A DNA stretch of 64,000 bases from a bacterium (GCA_021815205.1 JAKAHD010000001.1:25247-89246), one strand, 5' to 3'. Positions 3,676 through 41,557 are shown, numbered from the stretch's first letter. Numbers and translations are program-made. Notes: generated by a model from the sequence alone, not told the origin.

Positions 3676-3743
3676 TTTACTGCAAAAAAGACGATGAAAA
3701 CATACTATAACGTGCGGATCGGCGCATCAAAAAAAGTCGGTAA

Positions 3744-3768
3744 GACTTGGGCTAGCGCCCCGGAGTGC
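3744..3768. repeat. Repeat family E copy 1 (CGCTCCGGGGCGCTAGCCCAAGTC module, reverse orientation)
   Basis: GACTTGGGCTAGCGCCCCGGAG is the reverse complement of the module at 22903-22930 and 34256-34283. Confidence 0.7.
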
Positions 3769-3805
3769 ACACTTTTTTTGGTGTGACGAGTCGCACGATG
3801 CCCGC

Positions 3806-13254: not shown

Positions 13255-13297
13255 ATAAGGTATACTTATTGTAGGGCTACGAGATGCCAATTATATG

Positions 13298-13474
13298 CTA
13301 CGAAATACGAATTGTGTACGAATATACGAACACATGAGATCCTTCATCCGCCTGCGGCGCCTGCTCGCCGAATCCGCCACAGTGGAGCAGGCGGAGATCC
13401 ATGATGACGGTACGATTCGTATATTCGTAGTCAATTCGTAATTCGTAGAGAGAACGTAATCTATAGAGCATCAC
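13298..13474. mobile_element. MITE-like repeat family C copy 1 (177 bp; 33-bp imperfect TIR CTACGAAATACGAATTGTGTACGAATATACGAA / TTCGTATATTCGTAGTCAATTCGTAATTCGTAG)
   Basis: Identical 177-bp copy at 13934-14110. It ends directly at the ATG of ssb. The reverse-strand 'ORFs' 13298..13891 and 13934..14170 are translations of this repeat. Confidence 0.85.
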
Positions 13475-13933
13475 ATGAATCTCAACAAGGTCTTCATTCT
13501 TGGCAATCTTACCCGCGATCCCGAACTGCGGCAGACATCCGGAGGACAGTCGGTATCCACCTTCGGGGTGGCGACGAACAGTTTTTTTCAGGATAAGTCC
13601 GGGCAACGCCAGCAGAAGGTTGAATTTCATAACATAGTCGTGTGGGGAAGGCAGGCGGAGGTCGCGAGCCAGTTCTTGAAGAAGGGCGGGCTTGTACTCG
13701 TCGAGGGAAGGCTTCAGACCCGAACGTGGCAGGACAAGCAGGGAATGAACCACAAGACGACGGAGATCGTCTCCGAACGGATCCAGTTCGGTCCGCGAAT
13801 GGGAGGCGGAGATGCGGCCCGGAGTTCCTTTGGGGTCGGGAAAGCGACGGAGGACTCTGAAGCGCCGAAAGAAGAACTTCCCGATGTCCATATTGACGAA
13901 GAAGACATCAAGCCGGAAGATATTCCGTTTTAG
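13475..13933 (+). CDS. ssb: Single-stranded DNA-binding protein
   Basis: OB-fold SSB signature and acidic C-terminal tail ending DIPF. Confidence 0.92.
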   Translation: MNLNKVFILGNLTRDPELRQTSGGQSVSTFGVATNSFFQDKSGQRQQKVEFHNIVVWGRQAEVASQFLKKGGLVLVEGRLQTRTWQDKQGMNHKTTEIVSERIQFGPRMGGGDAARSSFGVGKATEDSEAPKEELPDVHIDEEDIKPEDIPF

Positions 13934-14110
13934 CTACGAAATACGAATTGTGTACGAATATACGAACACATGAGATCCTTCATCCGCCTGCGGCGCCTGC
14001 TCGCCGAATCCGCCACAGTGGAGCAGGCGGAGATCCATGATGACGGTACGATTCGTATATTCGTAGTCAATTCGTAATTCGTAGAGAGAACGTAATCTAT
14101 AGAGCATCAC
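13934..14110. mobile_element. MITE-like repeat family C copy 2 (177 bp, identical to copy 1)
   Basis: Exact direct repeat of 13298-13474. It ends directly at the ATG of rpsR. Confidence 0.85.
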
Positions 14111-14320
14111 ATGAAGACGAAAAAACAGTGCTTTTTTTGCTCGCAGAACGCGAAGGAGATTGATTTCCACGATGTGGAGATGCTCTCGCGTTTTATCTCA
14201 AGCCAGGGAAAGATCATCGACCCGCGCCATACGGGTGTGTGCGCCACGCATCAGCGTAATCTCGCCCGCGCCATCAAGCAGGCGAGAGTGATGGGGCTCG
14301 TTCCTTTCGTGACCCGATAA
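14111..14320 (+). CDS. rpsR: 30S ribosomal protein bS18
   Basis: 69 aa with the conserved bS18 Cys-containing N-terminus and DPRHTGVCATHQRNLARAIKQAR. Confidence 0.9.
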   Translation: MKTKKQCFFCSQNAKEIDFHDVEMLSRFISSQGKIIDPRHTGVCATHQRNLARAIKQARVMGLVPFVTR

Positions 14321-16410: not shown

Positions 16411-16415
16411 TAATG

Positions 16416-16536
16416 CTACGAAATACGAATTGTGTACGAATATACGAATACGACCGTTATTCTGACCTGCCGCAGGCAGAGAAGAATCTATCGGATTAGT
16501 ATATTCGTACTCAATTCGTAATTCGTAGAGAAATAC
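16416..16536. mobile_element. MITE-like repeat family C copy 3 (121 bp, same TIRs, different core)
   Basis: CTACGAAATACGAATTGTGTACGAATATACGAA...TATATTCGTACTCAATTCGTAATTCGTAGAG ending at the ATG of rplK. Confidence 0.8.
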
Positions 16537-16959: not shown

Positions 16960-17145
16960 TCTCAATACCCATGTTTTAACCCTTACATCAAGGGCGATAG
17001 ATTTCTGATTGTATTCGAGAAAACCATCTCGCAGGCCGAGCGGGCATGGTTTCCGCCGAAGGCGGAAGAGCGAGGCCGAGAGTGAGCGCGCATTCCTCGC
17101 TGGGGAATGCAATAGCGTGTTTTCGAGAATATAATTCAAGAAATC

Positions 17146-17886: not shown

Positions 17887-18052
17887 GGACTTAATTTGAA
17901 TCTTATAGTAACGCTTGCACGGATGGAAGTCAAATGAAGCAAATTCCAAATCCTAATTTCCTCCGCCTGAGGCGGATCCTCCTTCGGAGGAAAATCCTAA
18001 ATAATGGCCAAGATACGAAATTCCAATAACCAAAACGCGTCGTGTTTTCTAT

Positions 18053-18177
18053 CCCGTGAGAAGCAAGAAACCCCGTGGCGTGCCACGGGGATGAACCCCC
18101 CACTCATTTCGTGGGGGGGAATGCCTCGTCCCGTGGCGAACGCGGGGTTTCCTGCCCCCATGTGAGCTTCTCACGGG
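18053..18177. mobile_element. MITE-like repeat family D copy 1 (~125 bp, 13-bp perfect TIR TCCCGTGAGAAGC / GCTTCTCACGGGA, hairpin-rich GC core)
   Basis: Near-identical copies occur at 23137-23263 and 27380-27511. The internal hairpins are CCCCGTGGCGTGCCACGGGG and CCCCACTCATTTCGTGGGGG. Confidence 0.85.
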
Positions 18178-18230
18178 ATTTATTTTGAATTTTTGTCATT
18201 CGAATTTGTTTAGGATTTAGAGTTTTGAAT

Positions 18231-19215: not shown

Positions 19216-19257
19216 TCTCCCGAGAGTGTTATGACGCGTCATAACACCCTCGGGAGA
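19216..19257. repeat. Palindrome family A copy 3 (extended 42-bp palindrome)
   Basis: TCTCCCGAGAGTGTTATGACGCGTCATAACACCCTCGGGAGA lies between thrS and miaA. Confidence 0.9.
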
Positions 19258-22843: not shown

Positions 22844-22878
22844 AGAGATAATGATAACAGATTTAGGAGTCTAGACTT

Positions 22879-22959
22879 CTGCGCCGCACACCTTGCTGCT
22901 CGGGCGCTCCGGGGCGCTAGCCCAAGTCCTACCCTCGCATCAAAGTATGCGGCGCAGGA
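22879..22959. mobile_element. Repeat family E copy 2 (CTGCTCGGGCGCTCCGGGGCGCTAGCCCAAGTCCTACCCTCGC, flanked by inverted repeats CTGCGCCGCACA / TATGCGGCGCAG)
   Basis: The core is shared with 34256-34283 and, reverse-complemented, with 3744-3768. Confidence 0.7.
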
Positions 22960-23136
22960 GTCCATTGGAGGTGATTATTGGCTAAGCTACACGAGACGAT
23001 CTTTTGGATGATATATACCAGATCGCAATCCTTTCCCAATGTAACCTTATTAGGTAAAAACAACTTTTCCTTTTCGAAGAAGCTTCTTGGAGTGAGGATA
23101 TAGCTTTATGAGCGACAATGAAGGAACAGGAATTTA

Positions 23137-23263
23137 TCCCGTGAGAAGCAGAAAACCCCGGGCGTGCCACGGGGATGAACCCCACACTCATTTAGTGTGG
23201 GGGTGAATGCCTTGTCCCGTGGCGAACGCGGGGTTTACTACTCCGTGTGAGCTTCTCACGGGA
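23137..23263. mobile_element. MITE-like repeat family D copy 2
   Basis: Same 13-bp TIRs and core as 18053-18177, with a few substitutions. Confidence 0.85.
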
Positions 23264-23400
23264 TTTATCACTGTCCGAATCCCGAAGTCTGCCGTAGGCA
23301 GACGGAGGTTGAGTTTGAGAAATTCCATTGTGAATGAGGAGGAGCGAATAAAAAGCTATCCGAGCGGAAAGCTGGCTGATGAGGAAAAGAAAAGTTGTTT

Positions 23401-27361: not shown

Positions 27362-27379
27362 TCCGTGTCTTCGTGTCTA

Positions 27380-27511
27380 TCCCGTGAGAAGCAAGAAACC
27401 CCGTGGCGTGCCACAGAGATGAACCCCCACACTCATTTCGTGTGGGGGGGGTGAATGCCTCGTCCCGCGGCGAACGCGGGGTTTCCTACCCCCATGTGAG
27501 CTTCTCACGGG
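27380..27511. mobile_element. MITE-like repeat family D copy 3
   Basis: Same TIRs and core as copies 1 and 2. Followed by a 44-bp imperfect palindrome ATTACTAACTTGTGTGACGATCGTCACATAAGTTAGTAAT (27521-27566). Confidence 0.85.
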
Positions 27512-27585
27512 ATTTATTTTACATTACTAACTTGTGTGACGATCGTCACATAAGTTAGTAATGTAGTAATAGAGAAAACGAGTAT

Positions 27586-28556: not shown

Positions 28557-28629
28557 GCCACCTTAGCTCAGCTGGTAGAGCAATGCTTTCGTAAAGCATG
28601 GGTCCCGAGTTCGAGTCTCGGAGGTGGCT
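28557..28629 (+). tRNA. tRNA-Thr (anticodon CGU)
   Basis: Cloverleaf with acceptor stem GCCACCU/AGGUGGC, anticodon stem-loop AUGCU-UUCGUAA-AGCAU and T-arm GGGTC-CCGAGTTCGAGT-CTCGG. CCA is not encoded. Confidence 0.85.
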
Positions 28630-28645
28630 CAGAACTTCATATTCG

Positions 28646-28791
28646 GTAAACCCCAACGTGGCGATCATCTCCGTTCTTGCGGGCGCAGGAGGACTTGTCC
28701 TTCGAAGCCTTATTCTTAATCCAAGAAAACTAATATGTTATCGGTAAACCCCAACGTGGCGATCATCTCCGTTCTTGCGGGCGCAGGAGGA
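28646..28791 (+). repeat. 49-bp direct duplication (GGTAAACCCCAACGTGGCGATCATCTCCGTTCTTGCGGGCGCAGGAGGA) at 28646-28694 and 28742-28790
   Basis: The second copy encodes residues VNPNVAIISVLAGAGG of the truncated RF2. The first copy is out of frame, in the tRNA-Thr/prfB spacer. Confidence 0.9.
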
Positions 28792-29433
28792 GACGATGCG
28801 AAGGACTGGGCGAATAGGCTCCTCCGGATGTACTCGCGCTATGCGGATTTGAGGCATTGGAAGCTCCAGGCGGTAAACGATACGACGATAGAGCTTCGGG
28901 GCGAAGGGGCCTATGAGTGTTTAAAGGATGAGTCCGGCGTACATCGCCTGGTGCGTATCTCGCCCTTCGACGCGAAGAAGCTGCGGCACACTTCGTTCGC
29001 CTTGGTCGAAGTACTCCCCGAATTACCCGCGAATGATGCGGCGCACATCCAGATTCCTGAAAAGGATTTGAAGGTGGAGTTCTCCCGTGCGGGAGGGCCC
29101 GGCGGACAGAATGTGAACAAGGTAGAAACCGCGGTGCGGGTGACGCACCTGCCGACGGGGCTCGTGACATCATCGCGCGCCGAGCGGTCGCAGGCCTCGA
29201 ATCGCGAGAAAGCCCTGAATCTCCTGAAGGCAAAACTCGTGAAGCTCATGGAGGAGAAGCATGAGAAAGAAATCTCGAACCTGCGAACCCGCGTCGCTCC
29301 GGAGTGGGGGCATGAGATTCGTTCCTATGTACTCCATCCCTATAAGCAGATAAAGGATCACAGAACGGGACAGAAGATAAGCAGGGTGGAGGAAGTATTA
29401 GAAGGAAATCTAGATTTGTTAAATGCCAAATAA
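28735..29433 (+). CDS. prfB: Peptide chain release factor 2 lacking N-terminal domain 1 (domains 2-4 only); possibly truncated or pseudogenised
   Basis: The SPF codon-recognition motif (RISPFD), the GGQ motif (GGPGGQNVNKVETAVRVTHLPTGLV) and the AGAGGDDAKDWANRLLRMY block are all present. The product is only 232 aa, about 110-130 residues short of a normal RF2. No frameshift site or N-terminal coding sequence lies upstream. Confidence 0.75.
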   Translation: MLSVNPNVAIISVLAGAGGDDAKDWANRLLRMYSRYADLRHWKLQAVNDTTIELRGEGAYECLKDESGVHRLVRISPFDAKKLRHTSFALVEVLPELPANDAAHIQIPEKDLKVEFSRAGGPGGQNVNKVETAVRVTHLPTGLVTSSRAERSQASNREKALNLLKAKLVKLMEEKHEKEISNLRTRVAPEWGHEIRSYVLHPYKQIKDHRTGQKISRVEEVLEGNLDLLNAK

Positions 29434-29706: not shown

Positions 29707-30390
29707 ATGATCATTTTTCAGAACGTTTCGAAGAACTATAATCACAACTCCGTTGCTTTGGACAAGGTAAGCTTCAAGATCCAGCCGAACGAGTTCGTGA
29801 CTTTCGTGGGCCGTTCGGGAGCGGGGAAGTCCACCGTGGTAAAATTATTGATAGGAGAAGAGAAGCCCTCGAAGGGACAGATCTTCTTCGGCGCGTATGA
29901 GGTGAACAAACTGAAGCCCTCCGAGCTTCCCGAATTCAGGAGGCATATCGGCGTTATTTTCCAGGATTTCAGACTGCTCTCGAAGAAGAATGCATTTGAG
30001 AATGTGGCGTTCGCGCTCGAGGTTGAAGGAAGGTTTCAAAAAGAGATCAATGAACTTGTGCCCCAAGTGCTTGATATGGTGGGGCTCAAGGAGAAGATGT
30101 TCAACTATCCGACGGAGCTCTCGGGAGGCGAGAAACAGCGGGTCGCGATCGCGCGGGCGATGATCAATCAGCCGGATGTGCTTATTGCCGACGAGCCGAC
30201 GGGGAATCTCGATCCCTTCAACACATGGGAGGTGATCAAGCTCTTGAAGAAGATCAACGAATTGGGGAGCACGGTGATCCTTGCGACGCACGACAAAGAG
30301 ATTGTAAACACCCTTGGGGAACGGGTCGTCACGCTTGAGAACGGCCAGGTTGTGAAAGATGAAGCGCATGGAAGATTTCTCATTGATTAA
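29707..30390 (+). CDS. ftsE: Cell-division ABC ATPase FtsE
   Basis: Walker A GRSGAGKST, signature LSGGEKQRVAIARA and Walker B LIADEPTGNLD. The start is at the internal Met (MIIFQNV). Confidence 0.9.
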   Translation: MIIFQNVSKNYNHNSVALDKVSFKIQPNEFVTFVGRSGAGKSTVVKLLIGEEKPSKGQIFFGAYEVNKLKPSELPEFRRHIGVIFQDFRLLSKKNAFENVAFALEVEGRFQKEINELVPQVLDMVGLKEKMFNYPTELSGGEKQRVAIARAMINQPDVLIADEPTGNLDPFNTWEVIKLLKKINELGSTVILATHDKEIVNTLGERVVTLENGQVVKDEAHGRFLID

Positions 30391-30394
30391 TATG

Positions 30395-30652
30395 CTACGA
30401 AATACGAATTGTATACGAATATACGAATACGGACTCATAGCCCATAATTTGCAACGCAATGGGCAATTTCGTATATTCGTAATGAAGATACCGCACCGCA
30501 CGCGGTGCGGTATCGGAATTCATCCGAAGCCAACCCTCCTTCGTCCGCCTCGAGCGGACTACGGAAGGGTTCTCCTTCGCCCTCCATCCTCATCGCACGC
30601 GACGGAGGTATTCGGGCGAAGGAGAATAAATTCGTAATTCGTAGAGAAATTC
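30395..30652. mobile_element. MITE-like repeat family C copy 4 (258 bp; same TIRs, carrying a nested 12-bp-stem palindrome ATACCGCACCGCACGCGGTGCGGTAT and GC-rich hairpins)
   Basis: Inserted in the ftsE-ftsX spacer. The right TIR ends at the ATG of ftsX. Confidence 0.8.
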
Positions 30653-32192: not shown

Positions 32193-32832
32193 TCGTTTTT
32201 CAGCACACCTCAACTATTGGAAGTCGCTTCGCGCATTGCGGCGATTCACGCAGCCGCGCGGCACGTTCCTTTCGGAAGCGAGCGCGGAATTTTTGCGCGC
32301 GCTTTCGGAAAGAGGAAACGTTGTTCCGGTCTCCTCTTCGAGAGGAAGGAAAATCGTGTTGCGATACGCGATGCTTGTTATCGTATTCATGCTTATGTTG
32401 CACGGAGGCGCGGTGGTACTTGCGGATTCAGAGAACGTCGCGCTCACTCACCCGCTCTACCCCTATAAACGTCTTGGTGAAGATCTCCGGCTTTCGATTG
32501 CTCCAGTTGCGAGTCGTGCCGCCTTGCGGAGCAAGTTCGCGGAGCGTCGCCTCGAAGAGATGCAGGAGGCGAAGAAAAAGACAATGAAACGTCAAAAACT
32601 TGAAGTGCTGAACAATGATTTTAAGCGCGAGGTGAATGCGGCCTTGGCGAGCGCGGACACCGTGCAGGGCATAAGTACCAGCACCCGTATGTCCCTATGC
32701 GGAGCTCTCCAGGGGCTTATTCGTGAGCGCGATGCGCTCATGCACAAGGGACGCATTACGAAATGGAGCGGGTTTGCGTCGCATTGTAAAGAATTTTCGG
32801 GCACCGATACGTTTCCGGTGCAAGAGGAGTAG
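32185..32832 (+). CDS. Putative anti-sigma factor (single-pass membrane protein, DUF5667-like topology)
   Basis: Overlaps the sigma gene by 8 nt. It has a cytoplasmic N-terminus, one TM helix (IVLRYAMLVIVFMLMLHGGAVVLA) and a helical extracytoplasmic C-terminus. Confidence 0.4.
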   Translation: MNNRFSAHLNYWKSLRALRRFTQPRGTFLSEASAEFLRALSERGNVVPVSSSRGRKIVLRYAMLVIVFMLMLHGGAVVLADSENVALTHPLYPYKRLGEDLRLSIAPVASRAALRSKFAERRLEEMQEAKKKTMKRQKLEVLNNDFKREVNAALASADTVQGISTSTRMSLCGALQGLIRERDALMHKGRITKWSGFASHCKEFSGTDTFPVQEE

Positions 32833-33052
32833 GGGAGTCGGTTCTGTCCTGCCTTCGAAAACACGCGTCAACTCGCCCCAGCCGGCGAGTTGCGCTCGCT
32901 CTCGGCCTCGCTCTTCCGCCTTCGGCGGAAACCATGCCCGCTTGGCCTGCGAGACGGTTTTCGAAAGCAGGCAGAACCTTATGAGGGGTGGTGAACGATA
33001 TGACGCGCGATTATCTTTTTGTGTTGGTTGGACGGTGGAGTATTATAGGAAG

Positions 33053-34273
33053 ATGGAGTTCGGGTTTTGGGGAAAATTGAAGAAGCCGATATTCGCGCTT
33101 GCGCCGATGGCGAACGTGACGGATGCCGCATTCAGATATATTATCGCGAAGTACGGGAAGTTCACACGCCCCGACGGAACCGTGGGAGGCGGGCCCGATG
33201 TGATGTGGACCGAATTCGTGTCGTGCGACGGGCTCTGTTCCGAGGGAAGGGAAGCGCTACTTCAGGATCTGCGGTTCGACGCATCGGAACGGCCTATCGT
33301 TGCTCAATTTTTTGGTGCGGTGCCGGAGCATTTTTACGAGTGCGCGAAGCTTGCCGTGGAACTCGGATTCGACGGCATTGATATTAATATGGGATGCCCC
33401 GATAAGAATGTGCTGAAGCAGGGGGCGGGCGCTGCGTGTATCGATGCGCCGGAGCGCGCGAAAGAGATCATACGTGCGACACAAGAAGGTGCGGGAGTAC
33501 TTCCTGTGTCTGTAAAAACAAGAATAGGGACGAAGCGCAACACGCTTGCCGCGTGGCTGCCGTTGCTTCTCGCGCAGGATCTTGCCGCGATCACGATACA
33601 TGCGCGGACTGCAAAGGAGCTTTCCCTCGTGCCGGCGCACTGGGAGATTTTTCATGATGCGGTTCGGATACGGAACGAAGTACAGAGCGGAAGCGCGAAA
33701 AAGACGTTGCTTTTGGGAAACGGGGATGTGGAAAGTATCGAAGATGCTGCAAAGAAGGCCGAGGAGTACGGATTGGATGGCGTGATGATAGGGAGGGGAA
33801 TTTTCGGCAATCCTTGGTTTTTTAGAGATGCCGATATGTTTCGTACCGCGGGTTTAGCATACCGAGAAAAGTCTGCGCTCCAGGGCGCCTGCCTGCCCAA
33901 GCAGGCTAGCCCAAGCCCCCACACCTATTTCGTAGGTGTGGGGGCAAGTTTTCCCCACTCTTCTCAGCATACTAAGCCCGCTCCCCATAAATTTCGGGAA
34001 GAGGAGGGATTGCATAAAGAGAGTGATGGTGTTGGAGCGGATGAAAAGCTCCGGGTGATGGTGGAACACACGTTCCTTTTCGAGGAGATGTTCCGCGGAA
34101 AGAAAAGTTTTGATGTGATGAAGAAGCATTACAAGGCGTATGTGAACGGATTTAAAGGGGCAAAAGAGTTGCGCATCAGGTTGATGGATACGAAGAACGC
34201 GCAGGAGGTCGCGGACATCGTGGAAAATGTCCACGCATGGCACACTCACCGCTCGGGCGCTCCGGGGCGCTAG
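33053..34273 (+). CDS. dus: tRNA-dihydrouridine synthase with a ~60-aa repeat-derived in-frame insertion and a repeat-derived C-terminus
   Basis: The Dus TIM-barrel has LAPMANVTDAAFR, PIVAQFFG and GIDINMGCP. The ORF-track start at 32723 is a spurious extension; ATG 33053 precedes MEFGFWGKLKKPIF. Confidence 0.85.
   Translation: MEFGFWGKLKKPIFALAPMANVTDAAFRYIIAKYGKFTRPDGTVGGGPDVMWTEFVSCDGLCSEGREALLQDLRFDASERPIVAQFFGAVPEHFYECAKLAVELGFDGIDINMGCPDKNVLKQGAGAACIDAPERAKEIIRATQEGAGVLPVSVKTRIGTKRNTLAAWLPLLLAQDLAAITIHARTAKELSLVPAHWEIFHDAVRIRNEVQSGSAKKTLLLGNGDVESIEDAAKKAEEYGLDGVMIGRGIFGNPWFFRDADMFRTAGLAYREKSALQGACLPKQASPSPHTYFVGVGASFPHSSQHTKPAPHKFREEEGLHKESDGVGADEKLRVMVEHTFLFEEMFRGKKSFDVMKKHYKAYVNGFKGAKELRIRLMDTKNAQEVADIVENVHAWHTHRSGAPGR
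33860..34020. mobile_element. Intragenic repeat module inside dus (CTGCCCAAGCAGGCTAGCCCAAGCC plus hairpin CCCCCACACCTATTTCGTAGGTGTGGGGG)
   Basis: Low-complexity P/S/H-rich peptide (LAYREKSALQGACLPKQASPSPHTYFVGVGASFPHSSQHTKPAPHKFREEEG...) interrupts the Dus fold between the barrel and the helical domain. Its DNA shares the GCTAGCCCAAG and CCCACAC..ATTTCGT..GTGTGGG modules with families E and D. Confidence 0.6.
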
Positions 34274-34308
34274 CCCAAGTCTTACCCTCGCGGTTGGGTG
34301 TGCCATGC
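34235..34308. mobile_element. Repeat family E copy 3 (TIR GCATGGCACAC / GTGTGCCATGC) overlapping the dus stop codon
   Basis: CACCGCTCGGGCGCTCCGGGGCGCTAGCCCAAGTCTTACCCTCGC. The dus stop TAG lies inside GCGCTAGCCC, and the last ~12 codons of dus come from the element. Confidence 0.7.
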
Positions 34309-34372
34309 AAGATAAGAAATAAATGGTTATTGTCATAGCGGCGTTCTGGGTTCCGCGGTATACTAGAGCGAT

Positions 34373-41428: not shown

Positions 41429-41444
41429 AACGTCTCTCCTACGG

Positions 41445-41468
41445 GGTGTTATGACGCGTCATAACACC
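41445..41468. repeat. Palindrome family A copy 4
   Basis: Exact GGTGTTATGACGCGTCATAACACC about 90 nt upstream of the zwf-gnd fusion start. Confidence 0.9.
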
Positions 41469-41557
41469 CTCGATCCCATTCGCCTACCCCCATACCAGAG
41501 CGTACACTCGTGATGTGGGGGGTTTACTTCGGGAGGCGTTCGGTGGATACTAGAGGA

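Follow-up and report, generated by a model that had tools for sequence, protein, structure and literature searches.

Probable in-frame insertions of a palindromic repeat element in a tRNA-dihydrouridine synthase gene of the candidate phyla radiation

The stretch of DNA analyzed here (64,000 nucleotides of a bacterial contig, GCA_021815205.1 JAKAHD010000001.1:25247-89246; hereafter called the window, with positions counted from its first letter) carries dus, a gene for a tRNA-dihydrouridine synthase (Dus), and palindromic repeats of several families, one of which, family E, is represented both between genes and within dus. The dus coding sequence (CDS) occupies 33053-34273 on the plus strand and encodes 406 amino acids. 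The open reading frame (ORF) that spans the region in the ORF list is over-long (32723-34273, with a GTG start); because orthologues begin with M-x-x-GFW-x-L in an alignment of homologues, the ATG at 33053 is the likely start. The public annotation of an identical protein (P0001, 430 amino acids) begins 72 nt upstream of this ATG. Directly upstream of the dus start lies an 87-nt repeat of another family than E (32876-32962), contained both in the over-long ORF and in the public 5' extension; its second copy (17019-17105) is 89% identical and in inverted orientation. The Dus-identical protein was present on 9 contigs among those read, so the dus sequence is not an assembly artefact. One further contig (L105, from ERZ909589, 3054 nt) is a near-perfect inverted duplication in which two identical 388-amino-acid Dus genes stand head to head, and this arrangement is probably an assembly fold-back artefact.

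The two conserved domains of Dus were located by profile, structure and homologue comparisons. Pfam PF01207 (Dus) matches residues 16 to 262 (1.7e-51; 175.7 bits versus a cut-off of 20.4), and alignment to Dus chains in the PDB, together with values of the predicted local distance difference test (pLDDT) mostly above 90, indicates that the TIM-barrel catalytic domain is intact (residues 1 to 267; 33053-33853, plus strand). The C-terminal helical domain (residues 330 to 394; 34040-34234, plus strand) is likewise intact according to the alignment with Thermotoga Dus (PDB 1vhn), the homologue alignment and AlphaFold2. Residues 15 to 270 of the window protein pair with residues 8 to 235 of 1vhn, and residues 330 to 389 pair with 241 to 300, so that about 59 residues face 5 residues of 1vhn and are without a counterpart. 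In an alignment of 19 homologues, a hypervariable linker separates the two conserved domains. Among the 120 closest homologues, this linker is 10 to 12 residues long in most and 20 to 21 residues long in 15, and the 73 residues of the window Dus are the longest. The AlphaFold2 model (mean pLDDT, 79.3; both domains mostly above 90) has confident helices at residues 329 to 401, corresponding to the C-terminal helical, tRNA-binding domain, and drops below 50 exactly at residues 268 to 325 and 400 to 406. Because of these low values, the segment that is extra relative to orthologues (residues 268 to 325; 33854-34027, plus strand) is predicted to be a disordered interdomain loop, and the final residues are predicted to be a floppy tail. 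The original prediction had proposed an insertion of about 60 amino acids between an intact barrel and the helical domain, and had asked whether it forms a surface loop; the insertion is borne out by the 1vhn alignment and the linker lengths, and modeling displays it as a disordered loop. The accompanying statement that repeats replace the C terminus of the enzyme did not hold, since the helical domain is complete and only a short, variable tail of 12 residues and the stop codon are affected.

All close Dus homologues come from metagenome-assembled genomes (MAGs) of Patescibacteria (the candidate phyla radiation, CPR), the nearest being 59 to 70% identical. Other CPR Dus proteins (P0029, P0064 and P0036/P0073) carry unrelated hairpin-rich DNA in the same linker, which makes the linker a recurrent safe landing site.

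Family E has three intact copies in the window. Two are intergenic: one at 22877-22959 on the plus strand (covariance model, 73.5 bits) and one at 3713-3795 on the minus strand (64.6 bits), the latter of the AAAAAGTGTG inner-stem subfamily. The third lies at the 3' end of dus (34230-34313, plus strand; 68.4 bits, E=3.3e-16; fold z=-5.4), with an exact core at 34258-34284 and inverted ends at 34235-34245 and 34298-34308. The dus stop codon (TAG, 34271-34273) is inside this core, where the frame reads ..CGC TCG GGC GCT CCG GGG CGC TAG, and the last 12 residues of the protein (A395 to R406, AWHTHRSGAPGR) are encoded by the 5' arm and core of the element, just as the original prediction had claimed for a second E copy over the stop. 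A 22-mer, CTCCGGGGCGCTAGCCCAAGTC, occurs exactly three times in the window (3744, minus strand; 22907 and 34260, plus strand), with 0 occurrences expected by chance. An intrinsic terminator was considered for the 3' copy and rejected: the sequence beyond its 3' arm (AAGATAAGAAATAAATGG) has no T run, and copies occur inside ORFs. The A and T runs of the main E subfamily fall within the stem. In an Rfam scan of the window, only two tRNAs reached the gathering threshold, and 33800-34360 returned noise only at E values up to 10.

The DNA that encodes the extra linker segment was also found to contain family E sequence. The whole decayed element (33850-33979, plus strand) is in frame, and its 23-bp outer arms (33850-33872 and 33957-33979) close one long hairpin; 33850-33982 folds as a single closed hairpin on the plus strand (-66.1 kcal/mol, z=-7.2) and on the minus strand (-78.2 kcal/mol, z=-7.7). 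A decayed inner stem and core, AAAGTcTG CGCTCCaGGGCG (18 nt) CTAGCCCAAG, occupy 33868-33915 on the plus strand and were recovered by both nhmmer and a pattern search. With an nhmmer profile built from copies in other genomes only, 33868-33915 ranked fourth among the window matches, with an E value of 0.0092. The gapped pattern GCGCTCCRGGGCGC-N(0-30)-TAGCCCAAG matches 33875-33915 together with two intact copies (chance expectation, 0.00 matches); the third intact copy, at 3713-3795, escapes the pattern, having GCAC instead of GCGC. The 11-mer GCTAGCCCAAG has one extra exact copy, at 33905, within the insert, and the core is read there in the frame of the family's commonest peptide (ALQGAC..ASPSP versus ALRGASPSL). 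Orthologues lack the insert, and its DNA shows a significant relationship to the repeat family, so neither of the results that the original prediction had named as refuting (the same segment in orthologues, or no significant similarity to the intergenic modules) was obtained.

Two additions interrupt this copy. The core is split by an 18-nt insertion (33889-33906, plus strand) that, by nhmmer alignment and folding, forms a small hairpin of its own and partly duplicates GCCCAAGC. A hairpin scan identified a nested 31-nt hairpin, GCCCCCACACCT-ATTTCGT-AGGTGTGGGGGC, at 33915-33945 (plus strand), with CAAG on either side; past it the dus sequence continues CAAGTTTTCCCCACTCTTC, where the family consensus has CAAGTCTTACCCACTTTTT. 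Because of these nested insertions, the covariance model was unable to span the insert and gave a local match only (9.8 bits, E=5). This model picks up every long hairpin of the window, and matches below about 25 bits were not counted as E copies. By the other-genome nhmmer profile, dus is the only CDS in the window with E-derived sequence, and the strong hairpins of the window are almost all intergenic.

The linker DNA had also been assigned a module of a second repeat family, D. Family D consists of multiply nested palindromes of about 135 nt, with three intergenic copies within 10 kb (18050-18183 on the plus strand, 23135-23268, and 27378-27517; fold -80 kcal/mol, z=-7.9) and no Rfam match. 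The best non-self match to a profile of the three D apices was the dus hairpin at 33917-33944, at a marginal E value of 0.022. A metagenome scan for D-type or dus-type hairpins returned 70 heterogeneous matches that were mostly generic hairpins, with only L127 and L175 dus-like, and so did not support a widespread, independent D hairpin module. The resemblance between the hairpins is present, and a relationship of the nested dus hairpin to the family D apex is, from sequence comparison, suggestive only.

To define family E beyond the window, copies were retrieved by an exact 18-mer, CCGGGGCGCTAGCCCAAG, in a set containing one genome per species. This gave 102 loci, about 90 of which are in CPR genomes and have the full core; about a dozen non-CPR matches are without the remaining core, which is about the chance expectation. 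The hosts include Saccharibacteria, Nanosyncoccus, Minisyncoccia, Paceibacterota, Kaiser-, Jorgensen-, Adler- and Nomurabacteria, and Peregrini- and Peribacteria. Across 87 distinct copies, positions of the asymmetric 27-nt core CGCTCCGGGGCGCTAGCCCAAGTCTTA are either invariant or conserved at more than 90%, and the nine core positions outside the retrieval seed are themselves 90 to 100% conserved. The flanking arms of about 28 bp differ from copy to copy yet are complementary: all 28 arm pairs vary on both sides, 78% of cells are paired (versus 41 to 49% with the partner slid), and the covariation score is 0.575 versus 0.153 for shuffles. Ungapped stem lengths peak at 27 to 29 bp, giving an element of about 83 bp. 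Its structure thus comprises an invariant center, a short subfamily-specific inner stem and outer arms. The inner parts of the arms are shared within one genome, and the outermost 6 to 8 bp are copy specific and still complementary; between copies, also inside a single genome, the outermost 6 to 20 bp differ. Among arm mismatches, G:T (78) is not enriched over A:C (147), so the arms carry no strand signature of a transcribed RNA. Copies lie both between and within genes, in mixed orientation relative to them. With no G:T excess and mixed orientation, the pairing constraint appears to act at the DNA level. No copy of the 18-mer was present in the viral contigs searched, and the idea of a DNA-uptake sequence was dropped because of the copy number, which is about 11 in an 805-kb genome. 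No published description of the E motif, its peptides or a CPR palindromic element was found as far as searched, and to that extent E is a CPR-wide element that is apparently undescribed.

Many copies of E are located inside genes. About 40% of the copies (38 of about 94; 22 sense and 16 antisense) lie in frame within long ORFs, and the hosts include LigA, ValRS, TsaD, Tgt, UvrB, TypA, GatB, MnmA and a cysteine-desulfurase-like protein. Four frames of the element are open (..GALRGASPSLTPS.., RSGALAQVL, VRLGLAPRSA and DKTWASAPER), and the two stop-containing frames are never used internally. About 25 further copies terminate an ORF of the host within the element, as happens in dus. The ORFs beside tightly packed intergenic copies are distinct, complete genes, so that no gene was seen to be split, and no frame-breaking copy was seen among the intragenic copies examined; always-open, in-frame copies are expected from translation and selection. 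A 44-column E-peptide profile run against a set of 5.8 billion proteins produced nine word-sharing candidates, none of which scored, and gave no usable count of E-bearing proteins.

Filled and empty forms of the same site were found in orthologous genes. Three related Saccharibacteria differ at three sites in TsaD: L006 carries the element at site A and L025 does not, L009 and L025 carry it at site B and L006 does not, and site C has a decayed copy in L009. The filled form of site B is longer by 51 nt, the added DNA being 27 nt of core and 24 nt in which the native upstream codons recur as their reverse complement; its 5' arm encodes the native REEIEKIF, where the empty gene has REEAKKVF. Where the coding arms of L009 and L025 differ, the opposite arms show the matching changes. 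The TsaD gene of L009 (L009:3428-4750, minus strand; 440 amino acids) holds three palindromic inserts in all, one an intact E, one a decayed E (..SRAAALRNAPSQSL..) and one of another type. For LigA, a filled gene (L014) and an empty one (P0122) are 94 to 97% identical. The 3' arm of the filled gene encodes SNEPLPSE-VEVRGE, matching the native SNEGIPPE-VEVRGE of P0172, and its 5' arm starts with an exact reverse complement of 12 of those 3'-arm bases; relative to Mycobacterium tuberculosis LigA, the gap is 17 amino acids, or 51 nt. In these informative cases, host coding sequence makes up one arm, and the opposite arm is the reverse complement of it. Protein alignment alone suggests a similar native-arm arrangement for UvrB of L092. 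The copies in UvrB of L031 and L092 were considered as one core flipped at a single site, which was rejected because their arms are unrelated and their positions are about 12 residues apart; they are treated as independent insertions.

The LigA site also provided a series of decayed forms. Among 120 orthologues that are 77 to 99% identical, 35 have short linkers, 2 have an intact E and 78 have long inserts in which the arms are recognizable and the center has decayed or given way to different GC-rich palindromic modules. The insert in the dus linker shows the same decayed and nested state as these 78 inserts. In the Saccharibacteria DNA ligases P0121 to P0240, the loop between PL(K/R)L and EVRGE has at least 20 insert versions of 13 to 69 amino acids, and many of these have conserved arm-encoded flanks with differing central modules, as if hairpin loops had been swapped or re-invaded.

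Taken with the two copies in dus, these results make it probable that the dus reading frame has absorbed one small palindromic mobile element, the CPR-wide E, in two separate insertion events. An older copy would have entered the flexible segment that joins the TIM barrel to the helical domain and then decayed, gaining the 18-nt insert and a nested hairpin insert of about 33 nt, both multiples of three; it would be translated as part of a 58-residue disordered loop. A younger, intact copy would have arrived at the 3' end of dus, where one arm and part of the core supply the last 12 residues and the TAG of the core terminates translation. The mobile unit may be the core plus the inner stem, moved in trans by some enzyme. 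The rest of the palindrome may then arise through snap-back or template-switch copying of the flank, which at the DNA level would both extend it and maintain its complementarity; the same process could also erase an original direct duplication. Selection would retain only frame-preserving insertions located in loops or at the ends of genes. No benefit to Dus from the insertions is implied.

Several observations weigh against two insertions of a mobile element. A fixed direct target-site duplication is absent, flanking direct repeats being near the level of the permuted control, and in the ValRS lineage alone there are 8- to 9-bp direct repeats, which are easier to reconcile with ordinary transposition than with inverted duplication. 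Within 3 kb of about 90 copies, neither a transposase nor another recurrent neighbor was found, only recurrent host genes, so mobility of E is inferred from presence and absence only. The invariance of the core is in part an effect of retrieval with an exact 18-mer seed, and decayed copies clearly exist. The databases contain no close relative of the window genome (the best Dus match is 59 to 70% identical), and the empty state of dus was never seen. Finally, the conserved core may have a host function at the DNA or RNA level.

That last point can be extended into an alternative in which E is not selfish and is instead a host-selected nucleic acid signal: a conserved-loop hairpin bound by a CPR-specific protein, acting in chromosome organization, replication priming, or mRNA processing or stability, with the intragenic copies as tolerated side effects. 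Such a signal would account for a 27-nt core that is invariant across very distant lineages while the arms change freely and covary, for orthologous ValRS and TsaD copies in which the core is retained and arm changes are compensated although one of the arms is protein coding, and for the lack of a transposase near the copies. However, the copies occur in both orientations relative to genes, their positions are not conserved beyond narrow clades, and their presence varies among orthologues that are 94 to 97% identical. Many copies are decayed, including the LigA series and the dus insert, and the family shows no G-U signature, no Rfam family and no terminator-like T run past the stem. We consider a host signal unlikely. 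Less likely still is that the dus linker is an ordinary fast-evolving disordered linker whose likeness to E was acquired locally from the intact copy 360 nt downstream, through gene conversion or template switching. Linker length does vary across CPR Dus proteins, an intact donor is present in the same gene, and a partial duplication of GCCCAAGC stands between the core halves; however, the inner stem of the insert (AAAGTcTG) is that of the subfamily of copy 3713-3795, not that of the downstream 3' copy (CTCGGG), and the insert has its own 23-bp outer arms closing a 130-nt unit, which is the standard anatomy of independent E copies. It is very improbable that the hairpins are cut from the mRNA or bypassed by the ribosome, as in an intron-like or hop element, and so are absent from the protein: the element ends do meet at the base of a long stem, a geometry suiting excision, and CPR genomes are known for unusual rRNA intervening sequences, but each intragenic copy examined keeps the frame without a stop, in four combinations of frame and orientation, and the lengths of the nested dus additions are likewise divisible by three, a constraint expected only under translation.

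The two probable insertions of a small palindromic element into dus invite comparison with known repeat systems. Rickettsia palindromic elements (RPEs; RPE-1 to RPE-10) are about 100 to 150 bp long, are conserved over their full length, are confined to Rickettsia and insert in frame into unrelated metabolic genes (PMC10969869). E resembles them in being a small, noncoding palindromic repeat that is found between genes and, as judged from reading frames, in frame in unrelated housekeeping genes, where it would be translated as an extra surface segment; both occur in reduced genomes of host-dependent bacteria. In contrast to RPEs as published, E is about 83 bp, is super-phylum-wide and has an invariant, asymmetric 27-nt center with copy-specific arms that are at least partly inverted host flank. 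The RPE-like behavior put forward by the original prediction was thus extended to other host genes in CPR genomes (those listed above except that of the cysteine-desulfurase-like protein) and to presence and absence between near-identical orthologues; the architecture is different, and membership of E in the RPE families is not claimed.

MITEs, the miniature transposable elements with inverted repeats (for example, Correia, ERIC and the Coxiella QMITE, the last also with in-frame fusions), are, like E, short, nonautonomous, multicopy stem-loops that are occasionally intragenic and fuse or alter ORFs. A MITE has conserved terminal inverted repeats, direct target-site duplications and a parent insertion sequence, whereas E has variable termini and no consistent direct duplication, and the search of 3 kb around its copies yielded no parent element. 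[quoted passage not shown] However, REPs are 20 to 40 bp long and extragenic by definition, with a conserved GTAG or CGTC head beside the stem; the conserved part of E is the loop, E is often intragenic, its 87 copies have no GTAG or CGTC head, and no RAYT gene was seen near any copy. In quasi-palindrome template-switch mutagenesis (the Ripley model), imperfect inverted repeats are perfected and extended by copying one arm from the other. The arm covariation and inverted host-flank copies of E look like the outcome of this process, which is mutational and not an element, and which leaves the arrival of a constant E core at new sites unexplained.

A broader proposal can be made tentatively. E may be an active, Patescibacteria-wide module whose integration or maturation builds a palindrome of about 28 bp by inverted copying of the host flank; a conserved CPR enzyme recognizing the 27-nt loop would mobilize it in trans. 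It would then be one of several mutually nesting hairpin modules that add disordered loops or new C termini to a sizeable share of essential CPR proteins. Known bacterial transposition chemistries give direct duplications, not inverted copies of the flank. We regard this proposal as possible and, as a whole, doubtful.

Other repeats were observed in the window. Two families of short, perfect palindromes, GGGTGTTATGACGCGTCATAACACCC and GGTGCTATGCTATAGCATAGCACC, have four intergenic copies each (37-64, 624-651, 19222-19249, and 41442-41469; also at 2635, 19361, 56108, and 56313), and in some of these the complementarity continues into the flanks; they may represent sites bound by proteins or additional palindromic modules. 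An exact 183-nt duplication (13297-13479 and 13933-14115) has its copies 636 nt apart. With related sequence at 16411-16531 and 30390-30647, an AT-rich inverted-repeat family of TACGAAT-like units has four loci in the window. Just past a tRNA-Thr gene, 28557-28791 contains an exact 51-nt direct duplication (28643-28693 and 28741-28791) that overlaps the start of a 233-amino-acid release-factor ORF (28735-29433; PCRF and RF-1 domains). This release factor appears N-terminally short, which could be due to a frameshift or rearrangement. A perfect 28-nt palindrome, ATTCTCACATTCTGCAGAATGTGAGAAT, lies at 58910-58937 within the ORF at 58363-59400.

CPR genomes are among the smallest and most streamlined known, yet in them a repeat is tolerated in the essential genes for DNA ligase, ValRS, TsaD, UvrB and Dus. 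If the insertion reading of E is right, E would constitute a second, independent and much broader case of a phenomenon first seen in Rickettsia and would tie in-frame palindromic insertions to a host-dependent lifestyle with small populations. Many of the CPR-specific insertions, odd C termini and short hypothetical ORFs in MAG annotations would then be element derived; examples are the start and tail of dus and the spurious ORFs across E copies. The exact 27-mer is a simple marker with which E can be followed in metagenomes, and the combination of an invariant center with flank-derived arms would point to an undescribed way of making or moving palindromes.

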